DNA from: a virus
Direction: 5' to 3' (one strand)
Virus record (IMG/VR): IMGVR_UViG_3300025012_000956
Location: 1-64,000 of that record
Length of the DNA: 64,000 nt
The notes under the pieces were generated by a model that was not told the DNA's origin, searched no databases, and saw nothing but the letters and a program-made list of their open reading frames with translations. Within the stretch, counting starts at the first letter, position 1, and each line of letters begins with the position of its first letter. Made by a program: the position numbers and the translations under genes. Of this stretch, positions 3,037 to 11,023 are shown piece by piece.

Positions 3037-5058
3037 ATGAATAAAGATCTTGCAACAATTATAGATCTGGATAAAATAGCCAGTGAACTGGTTTATAGAG
3101 TAGGGATCCCCGATTTTAAGAATAATGACCACTTAGCTATCCTGATAGAAATTTTAAAAAATTTCAATTGGCCCAAACAGGGCATCCAAGCATTAATAAG
3201 AAACCTAATATTAGTTTCAGAAGCAACACCAACATCTCAAAAAAAAGTAAAGGTTTATTTACAAAAAGGAGAAGAAGCTCCTAAGGATAGAAAGGTTAAA
3301 AAGGGTCCTAGAGGTGGGACATATTATGATGCAACATCTGAAGAAAAAGCTAAAATTGAAAAATCAAGAATACAAAAACCTATAAATAATAAATCTACTA
3401 TTGCTCCTGTAGATAAAACAGTTCAGCGTCAACAAAAAATAATTACTAAAGAACCAATACAAAAAAAGAATATAGACACAAAAGAAGAAATTATTACTCC
3501 TGAACATATTCAACGAGTACAGAAGGCACTTGAAAAAACTAAAAGTACTACCAGTTTTTTACAAAATGAACCAGAAACACAGAAAATAGTAAATAGTTTT
3601 ATTGGTGATGTAAATGTATTATTAAAAACAAGAAATAAAGATTTAGCAAAAAAGATGGTGGACAAATATAAACTTGAGCATAATAATGAAAACGCTAAAC
3701 TTGGAGAAAAATCTAAACTTTATTTAAGATCTGTGAACTTAAAATATAGAAAAATATTTAGTGGTCTTGAAGGAAATGTAGCATCAACTACATTGGCAAA
3801 AATATTATATGATTCTGGAGCACTTAGTAAAAAAGGTAAGATGAGTAAAAAGTCTATGACAGCAAATAAAATCTTTACTGAATCTGAGCAATTACCTATT
3901 AAGAAAACTGATGCTGGTATACAAATTGGAAATATAACCGTTAAACATGCTAAAAATTATGATTATAATAAATTACCTCAGATGTTTATGAATTCTCAGG
4001 GTTTAAGTAAGAAAGAAGCAATTCAAAAAACAAAAGAATTAAAACTAAGAGTTGAAAGACACAATTTTATTATAAATAATTTTAGTAGTATTTTTAGTGG
4101 TGCGAATCTAAATACGTTGAAGGTGTGTCCTAAGTGTGATGTTACAACTTCAGAAGGTAGAACTTTTACTAAAAAAACAGCTACAGATATCTTACTAAAT
4201 AAAATAACAGAACTAGGGGGTAAAGATAAAACAATTACTGAAATTACAAAATCACTAAACGCATTAAATAATATTACAGATAAAGATAAATATGAAACTG
4301 AATTAAATGATATATTATTTAAAATATCAAATAATAAATCTACAACTTCAACATCAGCTGACTTAACAGAAATAATTGATTATTTGAGATTATTAAACAG
4401 AGACATAATAGCATATTTTCCATCAGAATCTAATTTTGCCTTAGGAGATATATTAACTTTTACTGATAGGCAACCCACAATAAAGGATATTCTAGGTGCT
4501 AAAAATTTAAGTTCAATATTTGTTAGTTTAGAAAACAGGAGTGTAAAAAAAGGAACAGGTGGAGCATCTTCATCTGAAAATAAAATTAAATTGACAAAAT
4601 TTAAATCTAAAGATACTCAAACTAATTTAGTGAAAATTGTAGATATATATGATTCTCTTATTAACAAAGATAACGTGACAGAAGCAGATAAATTAATCAG
4701 AACATTAGAACAAAAATATTCTAGTTATTTGACAGAAGATGATACTTATGTAAAATATATAAGAGGTAGAGATAATTGGGTTGCAGATAATTCTAAAAAG
4801 CTTCACAATAAAGAAGTATGGAAAAGATATTATCAATTAGGATATATGCTACAAACTATTTATAATAATGATGTGTCAATTCAAGCATTTCAAAATTCAA
4901 AATATAATGTAAGGACAAAGAGTGTAGATCATGAATTATCAGATGGTGTTAATGTAGTTGCAAAACTTGAATTTACACCGAGTATGATAAGAACATCAAC
5001 TAGAAAACCATTGAATAAATATGGAACTAGATTTCATCATGTAGTAAATAAATATTAA
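3037..5058 (+). CDS. large Lys-rich hypothetical protein
   Basis: 673-aa ORF; KGPRGG motif; no confident family. Confidence 0.6.
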   Translation: MNKDLATIIDLDKIASELVYRVGIPDFKNNDHLAILIEILKNFNWPKQGIQALIRNLILVSEATPTSQKKVKVYLQKGEEAPKDRKVKKGPRGGTYYDATSEEKAKIEKSRIQKPINNKSTIAPVDKTVQRQQKIITKEPIQKKNIDTKEEIITPEHIQRVQKALEKTKSTTSFLQNEPETQKIVNSFIGDVNVLLKTRNKDLAKKMVDKYKLEHNNENAKLGEKSKLYLRSVNLKYRKIFSGLEGNVASTTLAKILYDSGALSKKGKMSKKSMTANKIFTESEQLPIKKTDAGIQIGNITVKHAKNYDYNKLPQMFMNSQGLSKKEAIQKTKELKLRVERHNFIINNFSSIFSGANLNTLKVCPKCDVTTSEGRTFTKKTATDILLNKITELGGKDKTITEITKSLNALNNITDKDKYETELNDILFKISNNKSTTSTSADLTEIIDYLRLLNRDIIAYFPSESNFALGDILTFTDRQPTIKDILGAKNLSSIFVSLENRSVKKGTGGASSSENKIKLTKFKSKDTQTNLVKIVDIYDSLINKDNVTEADKLIRTLEQKYSSYLTEDDTYVKYIRGRDNWVADNSKKLHNKEVWKRYYQLGYMLQTIYNNDVSIQAFQNSKYNVRTKSVDHELSDGVNVVAKLEFTPSMIRTSTRKPLNKYGTRFHHVVNKY

Positions 5059-5070
5059 ACGGAAAAAATT

Positions 5071-5475
5071 ATGGAAAGTCAGTTACTTATAACGTTTACA
5101 ACAGGAAAAAAATTAGATGAAACTTTGGTAGAAATTCAAAATGCTTATAAATTATTATATGATAAAATATTTATATTACAAGATGAGGAAAATGAAAAAG
5201 AGGTAATCTGTAGTTATAATATAGATTTACATGAAACTATAGATGGAGATAAGATACCTAGAAATACAATTGGAGTACATAGGAAAAAGCAAACTAATAC
5301 TTTATATACAATAAATGCTTTAAATTATTTGATTACCGTGTTGAACGATGGAAAATTAGATAAACAATTTCCAGTACCATGGCAAAATTATTCTAACATG
5401 GTGTTGGTAACAAATAATGGTGAATTTAAAAAAATTAAAACGAGGTTATTGAAAATTGTAGAATTAAATGGATGA
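5071..5475 (+). CDS. phage hypothetical protein upstream of SSB
   Basis: 134-aa ORF containing HRKKQTNTLYTINALN. Confidence 0.6.
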   Translation: MESQLLITFTTGKKLDETLVEIQNAYKLLYDKIFILQDEENEKEVICSYNIDLHETIDGDKIPRNTIGVHRKKQTNTLYTINALNYLITVLNDGKLDKQFPVPWQNYSNMVLVTNNGEFKKIKTRLLKIVELNG

Positions 5476-5622
5476 AAAAGTTAAATGAAATTCTACTTTA
5501 TTGATAAATTTTTATAATAAAAAGAAATTCTTCTTATATTTATTACTAATGGTAGTTATTTAAATATAATAATTACTTATTAACTATTAAATATTAACTA
5601 ATAAATTACAAGGAGAATTGTT

Positions 5623-6438
5623 ATGAACACATCCAGTCAAACAAATGATCTTTTAAAAAAAGTCAAAGATCGTCTAAAAACACTTCAAGATTCAAACAAG
5701 CGAACAACTGGAACATGGAAACCAAAAGGTGTACATGTTATTAGGATGTTGCCCTACAAGTTCAATGAATATCCGTTTATTGAATTATATTTTCATTATG
5801 ACATATTCAAAAACAGTGAAATATCCCCTATTTCATTTGGTGATCCAGACCCAGTAGTAGAAGCTGCTGAAAAATTAAAAGCAGAACGAGACAAAGAATC
5901 GTTTATATTAAGTAGAAAACTAATGCCTAAACTGAGAACCTACGTTCCCATTATTGTAAGGGGAGAAGAGGCTGCTGGTGTTAGATATTGGGGGTTTGGA
6001 AAAGAAATATATGAAGCTATATTAAAATATATGGATGATCCAGAATATGGTAATGTATTCGATCCTGATACAGGAGTGGATTTTGATCTTGAATATACTC
6101 CTCCAGAACAAGCTGGAAATACTTATGGCAAGATATCAATTAAGGCAAAAAGAAATTCAACCAAATTGGCTGATTCTCCTGAACTGGTTCAGAAGTGGCT
6201 TAATACTCAAACCAATATTAATGAAGTATATAAGGTGAAAAGTTACGAAGAATTAAAGGACATGTTGAATGAATGGTTAGAAAAAGCTAGCGAAGATACT
6301 GGAGAAGAAACTGGAACTGAAGATGAAAAAGAACCTGAAGCTAAAGAGCAAAAAAAAGATGAAGTTAAATCTTCAAAAACAGTAAAAGATGCGAGCGCAG
6401 CATTTAACGAACTATTTAACAAAAACAAAAAAATATAA
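5623..6438 (+). CDS. single-stranded DNA-binding protein (gp32-like)
   Basis: IRMLP, FHY, GVRYWGFGKEIY, D-P-x-x-G-x-D-F motifs and acidic C-terminal region; first gene of the replication operon. Confidence 0.8.
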   Translation: MNTSSQTNDLLKKVKDRLKTLQDSNKRTTGTWKPKGVHVIRMLPYKFNEYPFIELYFHYDIFKNSEISPISFGDPDPVVEAAEKLKAERDKESFILSRKLMPKLRTYVPIIVRGEEAAGVRYWGFGKEIYEAILKYMDDPEYGNVFDPDTGVDFDLEYTPPEQAGNTYGKISIKAKRNSTKLADSPELVQKWLNTQTNINEVYKVKSYEELKDMLNEWLEKASEDTGEETGTEDEKEPEAKEQKKDEVKSSKTVKDASAAFNELFNKNKKI

Positions 6439-6454
6439 TAACCAGAGTTGACGT

Positions 6455-6772
6455 ATGAAGAAAGAAAAAAATAGTACTGAGAAGGCTGACCAATCTGAAA
6501 AAAATGTAGTTAAGCATGAAACCAGAGATAAACTTATTAGCGAAGTTTATAAAATGATTAACGAATCTGAGTCTGATTATTTTGCAACATTTTTAGATGA
6601 GGAAGAATCGACATCAACTATTATAGATTGGGTCTCTACAGGAGACCCAATTTTGGATATCCACATAAGCAATAGAATGAATGGAGGCATTGCAGTCGGG
6701 CGAATTTCAGAAATTAATGGATTAGAGTCATGTGTAACTGAGGATACACTTATTGATATAATAGTTGAATAA
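6455..6772 (+). CDS. uvsX: RecA/UvsX N-terminal fragment (92 aa) plus 13-aa split-intein N-part
   Basis: WVSTG..LD...GGIAVGRISEINGLES is the RecA region up to mid Walker A, followed by CVTEDTLIDIIVE* (intein block A, 6731-6769). Confidence 0.9.
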   Translation: MKKEKNSTEKADQSEKNVVKHETRDKLISEVYKMINESESDYFATFLDEEESTSTIIDWVSTGDPILDIHISNRMNGGIAVGRISEINGLESCVTEDTLIDIIVE

Positions 6773-6847
6773 AATAATGTTCAACCTAAGAATAAGAATT
6801 TTGCAAAGGGTAAAGATAGTAATAGTTATGGAAGATCACCATCAATT

Positions 6848-7300
6848 ATGTCTGGGAGGGGAATCAATGGATATTTAAATTATTACGATAATAAAATATA
6901 TTTTAGAAGTAGTCTAGAGATGTTAGTTTATATTTATTTATGTGAAAATAATGTAAGGTTTGAATTATCCAAACATAGAATAGAGTATGATAACGGAAAT
7001 AAGACATATAATCCAGATATAGTTATTGATAATACAATAATAGAAATAAAACCAAAATTTCTATTAAATTGTAAAACAGTTGTGGACAAATTAGAAGCTC
7101 TCAAAAATTATTGTAATATATTTAACCTTAAATTTAAAATAATTACAGAAGATTCATATGAAATATGGAAATATTTCAATAAAGATTTTATAGAATTGTT
7201 AATAAAAGAAAATAAATTGATATTATCAGATAAACAAAAAGAAAGATTATATAACTATAATTGGAAGTTTAATTATGGACATACAAAAAATAAAAATTAA
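6848..7300 (+). CDS. free-standing PD-(D/E)XK (TnsA-N-like) putative homing endonuclease, probably 5'-truncated
   Basis: FRSSLE...YNPDIVI...IEIKP; frame stays open back to 6773. Confidence 0.75.
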   Translation: MSGRGINGYLNYYDNKIYFRSSLEMLVYIYLCENNVRFELSKHRIEYDNGNKTYNPDIVIDNTIIEIKPKFLLNCKTVVDKLEALKNYCNIFNLKFKIITEDSYEIWKYFNKDFIELLIKENKLILSDKQKERLYNYNWKFNYGHTKNKN

Positions 7301-8579
7301 AGATGTTAAAAAGTTACTCGATTCGGGCAAAATAGTAAGGGTGAAAACTCTAAATGGAGATTTTACTAAGATTAAGAATTATATTACTAAAGGAATACTA
7401 GATACATATGAAATTGAACTTGAAAACCTTAATAAGATTAAGGTTTCGGCAACCCATCTGTTTTTTAGTAATATTGGATGGATTAAAACCGAAAATCTGA
7501 AAGTCAATAAACATAGTTTGTTGTGTGATGATGGTGGGTACCATCTTGTTAAGAAAATAGAATATGTAGGAAAACATAATATAGTTGATATAGGTGTAGA
7601 ACATTTAGAACAGTGCTATTTCGGTAATGGAATACTTAATCATAATTCTGGAAAATCTTTGTTAATCGGTCACATATTAGCAGAAACTCAGAAAAAAGAT
7701 GGAATTGCCGTATTAATAGATACTGAAGATGCGATTGATAGAGATTTTTTAAAAATTATAGGCGTGGATCTAAATAAATTAATTTATGTAAATACAAATT
7801 TAATAGAAGATGTATTTGAAATAATTGAGAGTATTATAGAAAAGGTTAGAAAAGATGACTCTAATAAACTTATTACCATAGCAGTTGATTCTATAATGGG
7901 CGCAACGGATAAAACAGAAGATGAAGCGGGCTGGGACAAAGCAGGTTATAAGACTCAAAAAGCAATTATCATTGGACAAGCAATGAGAAAAATAACTCAT
8001 ACGATTGCAAAATATAGAATTGCGCTTGTGTTTACTAATCAATTAAGAACCAAGCTCGGGGTACTTTGGGGAGATCCTCTCACAACATCCGGAGGTAAAG
8101 CTATTGGATTTCATGCATCACTCAGACTTAGATTAAAAATGTTATCTCAGATAAAATTGAAGGACAAAACTGTTGGTATTAAGGTAAACTGTACTGTAAA
8201 AAAGAGCAGATTTGGTTCAATGTATAATTCATGTAACTTTGATATTTATTTTGATAGAGGACTAGATCCTATTTCAACTTGGTTTGAAGAAGGAAAACGA
8301 TATAAAATAATAATTCCTGCAAAAAAATTGGATGATGTTGGTAAAAAAATGAAAGAAGTGAAGGGATGGAACATGTTAGATACTGATGAAAATCAACCTG
8401 AGCACTTTTTCCAACTACCGTCGTTTGAAGAAAAAATATTAAAAAATTCGGAAAAAAAGGAATACTTATATACAAAATTAGTTGACAATATTCTTCTAAA
8501 ATATAAGAACAGGTCTCAACTTATTCCTATGGATAAAGAAGAGCTGAAGTATATAGGCGATGAAGAAGATGAAGGATAA
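7275..8579 (+). CDS. uvsX: split-intein C-part (124 aa, 7275-7646) plus RecA/UvsX C-terminal fragment
   Basis: SATH (block B), VDIGVE...YFGNGILNHN|SGKS; then IDTEDA, VDSI, FTNQLR, TSGGKAIGFHASLRL RecA motifs. Confidence 0.92.
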   Translation: MDIQKIKIKDVKKLLDSGKIVRVKTLNGDFTKIKNYITKGILDTYEIELENLNKIKVSATHLFFSNIGWIKTENLKVNKHSLLCDDGGYHLVKKIEYVGKHNIVDIGVEHLEQCYFGNGILNHNSGKSLLIGHILAETQKKDGIAVLIDTEDAIDRDFLKIIGVDLNKLIYVNTNLIEDVFEIIESIIEKVRKDDSNKLITIAVDSIMGATDKTEDEAGWDKAGYKTQKAIIIGQAMRKITHTIAKYRIALVFTNQLRTKLGVLWGDPLTTSGGKAIGFHASLRLRLKMLSQIKLKDKTVGIKVNCTVKKSRFGSMYNSCNFDIYFDRGLDPISTWFEEGKRYKIIIPAKKLDDVGKKMKEVKGWNMLDTDENQPEHFFQLPSFEEKILKNSEKKEYLYTKLVDNILLKYKNRSQLIPMDKEELKYIGDEEDEG

Positions 8580-9627
8580 GTTTAGAGCTATTTTAGATGA
8601 AATAGAAAAAGACAATAGAGGTTTAAGTTCACAAAACATAAATTCTAGAATATTACTAGTAGATGGTTTAAATAATTATATTAGAATTTGGGTCATTATG
8701 CCAACTGTTAATGAAGACGGAACTCACGTTGGAGGAATTGTTGGATTTTTACAGACGTTGGGTTTAGCAATTCGGACGCTTCGACCAACTAGACTAATAG
8801 TTACTTTCGATGGGAAGGGCGGCTCCTTGCGTAGGAGAAAACTATATCCACAATATAAACAGAATAGAGGACGAGGCGTTCGTTTAAATAGAACCCATAA
8901 TTGGGCAGATGATGCAGAAGAATCTAAACAGATGATGTATCAATTAATGAGGGTTATAAAATATTTAAGTCAACTACCATGTACAGTAATTTCAGTAGAT
9001 AATATCGAAGCAGATGACACAATAGGATATATATGTGAGTTATGCAGAGAAAATGATGATACTGAAAGTTTATTTATAATGTCTTCAGATAAAGATTTTT
9101 ATCAACTAGTAGATAAAAAAATAAAAATTTGGAATCCAGTTAAAAAGAAAATGACTGAATATAATGATATTATAAATGAATTTAATATTCAGCCATATAA
9201 TTTTTTATTATTTAAGGCTATGAACGGTGACAGTAGTGATAACTTACCAAAGATAAAAGGTATAGGAAAAAAGACAGGAATTAAAAATTTTCCTTTATTA
9301 ACTGAAACAACCCAATATAGTACAACTGATGTATTAAAGTATGCTCAGGAGCACCAGGATAGCTCCAGATTATGCAGAATACTTCTAGATAATAGTAAAC
9401 AATATGAATTAAATTACATACTTATGAGGCTCGCTGGAGGTAATATAAGCAAATCAGCTGCTTTACATATTTTAGATAAGTTCAATTCTAAACCTCATAA
9501 ACTAGATCACCATAGTATTCAAGAACTAGTATTAGAGGACAAACTTTGGTCTTCATTTCCGAACATAAACTCATGGGTAAATTTAAATTTTGCCCGTTTG
9601 AACTTTTTCGCGATGAAAAATAAATAA
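8560..9627 (+). CDS. 5'-3' exonuclease / flap endonuclease (T4 RNase H-like)
   Basis: LLVDG, FDGKGG..RR.LYP.YK.NR, EADDTIG, SSDKDFYQL, GDSSDNLP.IKGIG. Confidence 0.92.
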   Translation: MKKMKDKFRAILDEIEKDNRGLSSQNINSRILLVDGLNNYIRIWVIMPTVNEDGTHVGGIVGFLQTLGLAIRTLRPTRLIVTFDGKGGSLRRRKLYPQYKQNRGRGVRLNRTHNWADDAEESKQMMYQLMRVIKYLSQLPCTVISVDNIEADDTIGYICELCRENDDTESLFIMSSDKDFYQLVDKKIKIWNPVKKKMTEYNDIINEFNIQPYNFLLFKAMNGDSSDNLPKIKGIGKKTGIKNFPLLTETTQYSTTDVLKYAQEHQDSSRLCRILLDNSKQYELNYILMRLAGGNISKSAALHILDKFNSKPHKLDHHSIQELVLEDKLWSSFPNINSWVNLNFARLNFFAMKNK

Positions 9628-9682: not shown

Positions 9683-11023
9683 GTGGAAGTAGATAATCTT
9701 GCAAATTTTGGTCAATCATATCAATCGAAAACGATTTATTCTTTGCTTACTGATGGGCCATTTTTAGAACAGATAGAAGATGTTTTATTTACAGAATATT
9801 TTGAATCTGAAGCGAATCAATGGATTGTAAAAATAATCAAACAGCACTTTGAGGTGTTTAAAGTACCCCCTACTTTAGATGTATTTAAATGTGAACTAGA
9901 AAAAGAAACAAATGATTTATTTAAAGAAGAAATCATAAAGAGATTATCAGATGCGCTTGATTATAAAGATGCACAAGACCTGCAATATATAAAGGAAAAC
10001 TTTATTCAGTTCTGTATCAATCAGCACTACAAGATTACATTTTATCAATCCTTAGATGATTATAAAAAAGGAAATTATTCTGCGATTAGAAAAAGATTCG
10101 AAGATGCAGAAAAAGTAGGACAAAGTAGAGATTTAGGTCTTATGTTATTAGACAAAACAGCAGACACTGTAATGAATCAACTTAAGAGAAAAACTATATC
10201 AACTCCATGGGACATAATAAATGATATGACAGAAGGAGGCTTGGCACCTGGGGATTTATCAATAATAGTTGGAGGACCGGGAGCGGGAAAATCATGGTTT
10301 TTATGCAATGTTGGGTCGCATGGTTTAAAATTAGGATTAAACATAATCCATTATACATTAGAACTAGATGATATAATGATTGCAAGAAGATATTATTCTT
10401 TATTTACTGGTATACCGAGTATGGATTTAAAATATAGTTTAAGTGAAATAGATAGTAAAATTACTGTATATAAGAATAAAAATGCAACACTATGTATAAA
10501 GAAATACCCAACAAAACGTGCATCTATTAATACTCTAATTACACATGTTAAAAAATATAAATCCATGGGGTTAAACCCTGACTTAATTGTAGTAGATTAT
10601 GCTGATTTACTTAAGCCAGAAAAATTTTACAAAGACAAACGATTAGAATTAGGTAACATATATGAGGAACTAAGAGGAATGGCTGGTGAACTTCAGGTAC
10701 CAATTTGGACTGGAAGTCAGGCAAACCGTTGTCTATTTTTAGATACAAATGTTATAACATGTGATAAGGGTACTATAAAAATAGTAAATATTACTGTAGG
10801 AGATAAAATATTAACGCATGCTGGGTTTAAAAAAGTAACATTTATATATCCTATAGAAAAACAACCCGTTTATAAAATCAAAACAAAGGGAGGAAAAGAA
10901 ATTTTGGTTTCTGCTAAGCATTTATTTCCAGTTCAATACAATAAGTTCAAATCAATTGATAGTGGTCTAGTTCCAGGTGATAAATTATTTATTAAAAAGC
11001 AAAAATTGACACCTAGTTCATAA
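9683..11023 (+). CDS. replicative helicase (gp41/DnaB) N-fragment (349 aa) plus split-intein N-part (97 aa, 10730-11020)
   Basis: GGPGAGKS, YTLEL, VVDYADL, WTGSQANR|CLFLDT...SAKH. Confidence 0.92.
   Translation: MEVDNLANFGQSYQSKTIYSLLTDGPFLEQIEDVLFTEYFESEANQWIVKIIKQHFEVFKVPPTLDVFKCELEKETNDLFKEEIIKRLSDALDYKDAQDLQYIKENFIQFCINQHYKITFYQSLDDYKKGNYSAIRKRFEDAEKVGQSRDLGLMLLDKTADTVMNQLKRKTISTPWDIINDMTEGGLAPGDLSIIVGGPGAGKSWFLCNVGSHGLKLGLNIIHYTLELDDIMIARRYYSLFTGIPSMDLKYSLSEIDSKITVYKNKNATLCIKKYPTKRASINTLITHVKKYKSMGLNPDLIVVDYADLLKPEKFYKDKRLELGNIYEELRGMAGELQVPIWTGSQANRCLFLDTNVITCDKGTIKIVNITVGDKILTHAGFKKVTFIYPIEKQPVYKIKTKGGKEILVSAKHLFPVQYNKFKSIDSGLVPGDKLFIKKQKLTPSS

Follow-up and report, generated by a model that had tools for sequence, protein, structure and literature searches.

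A split intein with a 13-residue N-terminal fragment in the Walker A loop of a phage UvsX gene

The IMG/VR record IMGVR_UViG_3300025012_000956 is 74.5 kb long and derives from an uncultured T4-like phage. Its positions 1-64,000 (hereafter the window) carry a uvsX recombinase gene that is divided between separate open reading frames (ORFs). UvsX is probably produced here as two proteins, an N-extein of 92 residues followed by an N-terminal intein fragment (IntN) of 13 residues and a C-terminal intein fragment (IntC) of 124 residues followed by a C-extein of 310 residues, which are joined by trans-splicing of an intein that a homing endonuclease gene split at the S1 site. A natural IntN of 13 residues would be the shortest known, and it belongs to a family with 29 or more distinct natural split partners (30 split forms counting the window). 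Short IntN fragments are prized because they are within reach of peptide synthesis and cause little disturbance of the tagged protein (PMC13014065, PMC10189870).

Anatomy of the locus and its extein junction

Three ORFs on the + strand (6455-6772, 6848-7300, and 7275-8579) make up the locus, which has the following parts.

6455 to 6730, + strand: UvsX/RecA-like N-extein, 92 residues ending in EINGLES, with the first half of the Walker A loop
6731 to 6769, + strand: IntN, 13 residues, CVTEDTLIDIIVE, with intein block A and strands β1 and β2
6770 to 6772, + strand: TAA stop codon that creates the split and terminates the N fragment (ORF 6455-6772, 105 residues)
6773 to 7300, + strand: PD-(D/E)xK endonuclease remnant, TnsA-like and 5'-deleted; its ORF runs from ATG 6848 to 7300 (150 residues)
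7275 to 7646, + strand: IntC, 124 residues, MDIQKIKIKD...GILNHN
7647 to 8579, + strand: UvsX/RecA-like C-extein, 310 residues and stop, starting SGKSLL, with the second half of the Walker A loop and the Ser+1 nucleophile

The original prediction of a 13-residue IntN at 6731-6769 and a 124-residue IntC agrees exactly, in coordinates and residues, with the ORFs and the sequence. The ATG of IntC, at 7275, is in a different frame from the endonuclease ORF, and the last 26 nucleotides (nt) of that ORF are shared with IntC. The 434-residue product of ORF 7275-8579 (IntC and C-extein) matches Pfam RecA over residues 124-330 (E 8.7e-40) and Pfam Intein_splicing on IntC (E 1e-5); the Pfam RecA match of the N-extein is weak. 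The locus is flanked by Pfam matches to gp32 (5623-6438) and 5'-3' exonuclease (8560-9627). No terminator-like site was found between the three ORFs in a scan of the locus, and promoter-like sites in it were no commoner than in shuffled sequence.

Intein-less uvsX alleles are found in L001-L004, and in the viral contigs L001 and L004 the encoded UvsX contains the uninterrupted sequence EINGLESSGKSLL. The N fragment aligns with L004 residues 1-92, with Cys1 opposite Ser92 (BLASTP, 57% identity, E 4e-32), and the C-extein picks up at L004 residue 92 (BLASTP, 60% identity, E 4e-129). This placement of both fragments on one intein-less protein puts the insertion point exactly at GLES/SGKS, within the Walker A loop. 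The identical N-fragment protein occurs on 37 contigs and the identical C fragment on 23; because exact proteins recur on so many contigs, the split is not an assembly slip. A blastn comparison of the locus with GenBank phages gave no match.

The residues of a class 1 intein are all present, namely Cys1, S58-x-x-H61 in block B, D105 in block F, H123-N124 in block G, and Ser+1 (58-124 are IntC numbering). The Cys1 codon (6731-6733) directly follows GLES, and Cys1 is invariant in relatives whose intein is contiguous. Block B reads S58-A-T-H61, with its Ser and His unchanged throughout 18 sequences, and block F reads IVD105I; D105, H123, and N124 are likewise invariant in 18 relatives. IntC is conserved about as well as the extein, as seen in P0006, which has 55% identity over the IntC region and 59% over the whole protein. 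Such conservation bears on the idea that the intein pieces only hold the UvsX halves together as a non-covalent assembly. There is precedent for such assembly in a phage ribonucleotide reductase whose gene is broken by a mobile element (PMC3045599). However, uvsX is broken within the Walker A loop, and 137 residues left in place there would disrupt the loop; the conserved Cys1, block B His, block F Asp, His-Asn, and Ser+1 would have no explanation without splicing chemistry. Assembly without splicing is therefore very unlikely.

The split and the length of IntN across the family

Viral and metagenome contigs were scanned for the pattern G-L-x-x-CVTEDT, and each match was read to its stop. Approximately 35 of the 77 metagenome matches were unrelated chance matches and were excluded. 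Conservation of IntN residues 1-6 (CVTEDT) is partly by design, as the pattern fixed them; the bias does not extend to residues 7-13 or to where the stop lies. The CVTEDT motif is also present in L006, L007, P0016, and P0017, which were found independently through IntC or the N-extein.

In total, 42 distinct sequences with UvsX context were obtained. IntN has 13 residues in 21 of them (window included), 14 residues in eight, and 16 residues in one; the intein is contiguous in 10, and two run off the contig. The split at this turn is thus found in 30 of 42 distinct family members, most often with an IntN of 13 residues. For four of the IntN with 14 residues, that length rests on TAG read as sense, in phages whose uvsX holds 15-21 TAG codons in frame. 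A stop at codon 14 is seen in 23 distinct DNA versions (TAA in 12, TGA in six, and TAG in five), although four of the TAG codons are probably sense and were tallied as 14-residue IntN. Recurrence of the tail and of the same stop position in half of the distinct sequences, with all three stop codons in use, is not due to chance. At IntN positions 8, 10, and 12, only Ile and Val occur, specified by 3-5 different codons among the 23 DNA versions, and positions 7, 9, 11, and 13 are polar and variable. This periodicity, together with the synonymous codon variety, is what a selected β-strand would show.

Searches with the two fragments gave the same picture. IntC gave 13 homologues, with E from 9e-20 to 2e-39; in 10 of these the start is no more than a few residues away from that of the window IntC, and the other three are contiguous UvsX proteins of 531-534 residues. 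Among the loci found via IntC, independently of IntN, is L006, whose IntN has 13 residues and is followed by a gap of 97 nt. In L007 the IntN has 14 residues, and the locus encodes an endonuclease of 368 residues. The intein of L008 is contiguous, and its 13 residues lead straight into a portion resembling IntC that has kept its initial Met. Two N-fragment homologues, P0016 and P0017, end in IntN of 13 and 14 residues, respectively. Four contiguous relatives (L087, L104, L133, and L171) have inteins of 137 residues, which is 13 plus 124. The cut in the window is therefore clean, since its pieces sum to the length of the contiguous forms.

The short IntN could in principle be secondary, if a longer ancestral IntN had been shortened by the same deletion that cost the endonuclease gene its 5' part. 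The deletion junction lies approximately 10 nt or less from the IntN stop, and some relatives have 14 or 16 residues. However, 13 residues is the length in loci that still have a full-length endonuclease (L093, L096, L098, L103, and L162) and in L097 with its 9-nt gap, and the 137 residues of contiguous forms equal the sum of 13 and 124. A window copy truncated from a longer IntN in its relatives, which the original prediction had named as the result that would count against it, is not what the family presents, and we consider truncation most improbable.

The spacer between the stop codon of IntN and the start of IntC ranges from 9 nt (L097) to 1347 nt across the family, indicating that the split persists long after the endonuclease is lost. 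A split after just 13 residues has thus been stable over long divergence. The family presents each stage of the homing cycle at one site, from mini-intein through endonuclease insertion and decay to a bare split or contiguous form.

The alternative that the endonuclease insertion inactivated uvsX and left the intein pieces as decaying, non-splicing relics is unlikely. It could draw on the decay of the endonuclease in the window and on the incompleteness of the record, which would allow another recombinase elsewhere in the genome. The exteins are nevertheless intact, with 57-60% identity to intein-less UvsX, and every catalytic intein residue is retained. In addition, the same split with intact pieces occurs in 30 divergent sequences, many of which are endonuclease-free, and the IntN amino acids are conserved over varied codons.

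Some family members have little or nothing between the two fragments. The split in L097 (9 nt) and in L099, L092, and L151 (73-97 nt) has a minimal spacer and no endonuclease trace, and contiguous forms such as L087 have a Met exactly at the IntC start position. Together, the near-spacerless splits and the Met of the contiguous forms hint at re-fusion of split inteins or at precise endonuclease loss. In five loci (L139, L141, L148, L166, and L185), the uvsX reading frame contains 15-21 TAG codons and at most one of the other stop codons, and these loci probably belong to TAG-recoded phages. The intein family is kept in these TAG-rich relatives: the IntN tails are rich in Lys, the form in L166 is contiguous, and three loci have TAG-TAA following residue 13.

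Predicted fold, endonuclease decay, and a route to spliced UvsX

The fold was read from a contiguous relative (L087:6535-6945, 137 residues) and from the window IntC alone. The AlphaFold model of the L087 intein, built from an 18-sequence alignment, has a predicted local distance difference test score (pLDDT) of 96.1 and a predicted template modelling score (pTM) of 0.86. It has strands at residues 2-3, 7-12 (β2), and 15-20 (β3) and a helix at 23-29, so that residues 1-13 comprise β1, β2, and the turn, and a break behind residue 13 lies within the turn of two residues that links β2 to β3. An atypical break just after the first strands had been proposed from the window sequence, and the model bears this out. 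The S1 site is defined as a split directly after strand β2, which is where VidaL and PolB16 are split (PMC13014065); the modelled fold places the present split at this site and not at the endonuclease-domain site.

The best Foldseek match of the L087 model in the PDB is VidaL (6vgv; template modelling score 0.89, root-mean-square deviation (rmsd) 1.7 Å, 22% identity). By VIA-align, the Ssp DnaB mini-intein (Z 21.7), M86 (21.5), and VidaL (21.1) are tied, and the alignment with VidaL is the most extensive (133 of 137 residues). All 50 of the VIA-align matches listed are HINT-fold domains, nearly all of them inteins, with Z of 15.6-21.7. A profile of the family also matches VidaL, a distant relative in sequence (E 6e-10), in an alignment that begins at the first strand of IntC. 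Modelled alone, the window IntC has HINT strands and a pLDDT of 91.9, and its first seven residues score lower and are not assigned as a strand. Such an IntC start fits a strand awaiting its IntN partner, although as evidence this is soft.

The window IntN has a net charge of -4 and the first IntC strand +2, and most relatives are alike in this respect. The predicted pairing of an acidic IntN with a Lys-rich IntC is thus supported only in part: it fits the window and most relatives, whereas covariation of the two charges across the whole family is weak (Spearman -0.42, p 0.035, n=25, uncorrected for relatedness). Lys-rich IntN tails with less basic or acidic IntC starts are found in L139, L141, L148, and L185, all probably TAG-recoded, and in L149. 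Charge pairing of the two fragments is suggestive only.

The gap between IntN and IntC contains a decayed nuclease. ORF 6848-7300 has a weak Pfam TnsA-like N match (E 1.2e-5, 26.2 bits against a 26.5-bit cut-off) and also weakly matches endonuclease I nucleases. Its 150 residues align only to residues 215-363 of the 368-residue L007 endonuclease (BLASTP, 33% identity, E 4e-19). Reading on from the TAA, similarity starts at residue 4-5 (about position 6782) and extends over the last ~160 codons of inserts of ~1130-1350 nt in ten related loci (tblastn, E 1e-25 to 2e-40). The core motif E...PD...ExK is retained, and approximately 210 N-terminal residues are gone in comparison with full-length copies; this missing two-fifths or more is presumably the DNA-binding part. 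Activity of the remnant is doubtful, judging from what is left of it. Still smaller 3' remnants occur in L102, L089, and L105. As homology is confined to the 3' part, the rest of the gene was lost through a deletion of ~640 nt with one end no more than about 10 nt from the IntN stop.

In the window, the nuclease ORF is in the same frame as the N fragment, from which a single TAA (6770) separates it. Read-through of this codon could make an IntN-endonuclease fusion or a cis intein in translation, and the lone TAA is what would favor it. The arrangement speaks otherwise in several ways. The frame of IntC is a different one, with 26 nt in common with the endonuclease ORF; the L007 endonuclease is out of frame with its N fragment; all three stops occur at this position across the family; and the 5' deletion accounts for the shared frame. 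Positions 6770-6850 are thus a deletion scar and not a read-through design, and translation through the stop is scarcely credible. The truncation of IntN, read-through of the TAA, and non-covalent assembly were all rejected as readings on the evidence given for each.

The preferred reading remains that UvsX is joined by trans-splicing. The sequences and models establish the gene layout, the extein junction, conservation through the family, the place of the split in the fold, and the decay of the endonuclease. From the persistence of the split without the endonuclease, the intact catalytic residues, the conservation of IntC, and the precedent of a working artificial 11-residue IntN in M86, one of the structurally closest inteins, we infer that the two pieces associate and splice. 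IntN would provide β1 and β2, with a hydrophobic face of I8, I10, and V12 packing into the IntC core. Strand β2 would pair antiparallel with the first IntC strand, helped by the acidic IntN facing the Lys-rich strand. Splicing would then proceed by an acyl shift at Cys1, transfer to Ser+1, and cyclisation of Asn124 aided by His123. The product would be a 402-residue recombinase with the Walker A loop GLES-SGKS restored. As to origin, a free-standing PD-(D/E)xK homing endonuclease gene probably split a 137-residue mini-intein by inserting at the turn between β2 and β3; in the window genome, the ~640-nt deletion would have followed, with loss of the endonuclease 5' part and with IntN and its stop left intact.

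Some points weigh against this account. Although this gene gives the only RecA-family matches in the 74.5-kb record, the record is only ~37% complete, and a second recombinase may lie elsewhere. Block B has S-x-x-H instead of T-x-x-H, although it does so throughout the family. The charge covariation is weak, and its statistic ignores relatedness. Finally, a 13-residue peptide may bind weakly.

Known split inteins and further breaks in uvsX

Natural IntN fragments of atypically split inteins range from 15 to 37 residues; that of PolB16, with 15, has been called "record-short", and that of VidaL has 16 (PMC13014065, PMC10189870). The suggestion that 13 residues lie at or below the shortest natural IntN fits this published range. 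No natural IntN of fewer than 15 residues was found in the literature, in a search that did not cover the original VidaL and AceL papers or supplements. With 15 residues as the shortest published natural IntN found, 13 would be a modest record. Natural splits at the S1 site and a working artificial IntN of 11 residues, that of M86 (PMC13014065), are already known, so the concept is unchanged.

VidaL (PDB 6vgv/6vgw) is a close natural parallel, as a Cys-dependent intein from environmental phage-like DNA with an S1 split, an ultra-short IntN, and the same fold. Identity is only ~22%, and its IntN has 16 residues compared to 13 here. VidaL has been shown to splice with a half-time of ~1 min at 37 C (PMC13014065), whereas for the window family we infer splicing. 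PolB16 OarG is also a natural S1 split, and its 15-residue IntN, made by peptide synthesis, is described as the shortest characterised (PMC10189870). However, it is a Cys-less intein of a DNA polymerase that splices slowly with a side reaction (PMC13014065), while the window intein has Cys1 and Ser+1 and an IntN two residues shorter. The Ssp DnaB mini-intein and M86 (PDB 1mi8, 6frg) are the best VIA-align matches to the family model (rmsd 1.3), and M86 demonstrates that an 11-residue IntN at this site can support splicing (PMC13014065). They represent an engineered split of a bacterial helicase intein and directed evolution, in contrast to a natural arrangement. The AceL TerL and GOS TerL inteins resemble the window intein as natural split inteins with short IntN from metagenomic phage DNA, but they are split after helix α1 (S2), have IntN of 25 and 37 residues, and reside in the terminase large subunit (PMC13014065).

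The fractured genes of Dassa et al. (2009) are similar in layout. There, a phage DNA-metabolism gene lies in two ORFs, with split-intein halves around a free-standing homing endonuclease gene that overlaps the IntC start; the endonucleases described are GIY-YIG or Vsr-like, and UvsX is reported only as a neighbouring gene (PMC2677866). The window locus differs in its S1 split and its TnsA-like PD-(D/E)xK nuclease, which is 5'-deleted here. The inteins of the earlier fractured genes are presumably split at the usual endonuclease site. With respect to the features of a fractured gene, the host gene in the window is a phage replication/repair gene (UvsX/RecA-like), and intein-less alleles exist.

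The natural contiguous controls and the variants of opposite charge are raw material for semisynthesis tools and for study of minimal intein recognition. Whether the UvsX Walker A family has the shortest natural IntN and also trans-splices efficiently with a synthetic 13-mer is, in our judgment, an even call. If it does, nature would already supply a range of ultra-short ligation tags, which may be mutually orthogonal. Among the natural variants are clean 137-residue cis forms, endonuclease-free forms with 9-nt gaps, and Lys-rich "charge-swapped" IntN in probable TAG-recoded phages.

Further breaks occur in uvsX of some relatives. The uvsX of L008:3240-6391, which shares its contig with L087 (IMGVR_UViG_3300035703_000206), is broken into four or more pieces and includes the contiguous Walker A intein. 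A second atypically split intein is located there at DPW/TTSGG, with an IntN of ~31 residues and an IntC in ORF 4406-4792 that ends VNHN/TTSGG. A third break comes right after TTSGGIS and holds a 288-residue endonuclease ORF (5047-5913) with no recognisable intein pieces. The C fragments P0002, P0004, and P0007 carry a C-terminal second ultra-short IntN at the DPW site; P0004 (103-kb contig) ends in the 15-residue CVDPFTTKIKIRYKK. This second IntN indicates that uvsX of some phages has two independent S1-type split inteins. Elsewhere in the window, the helicase ORF 9683-11023 ends in an IntN of conventional length (Pfam DnaB_C and Hint/Intein_splicing).

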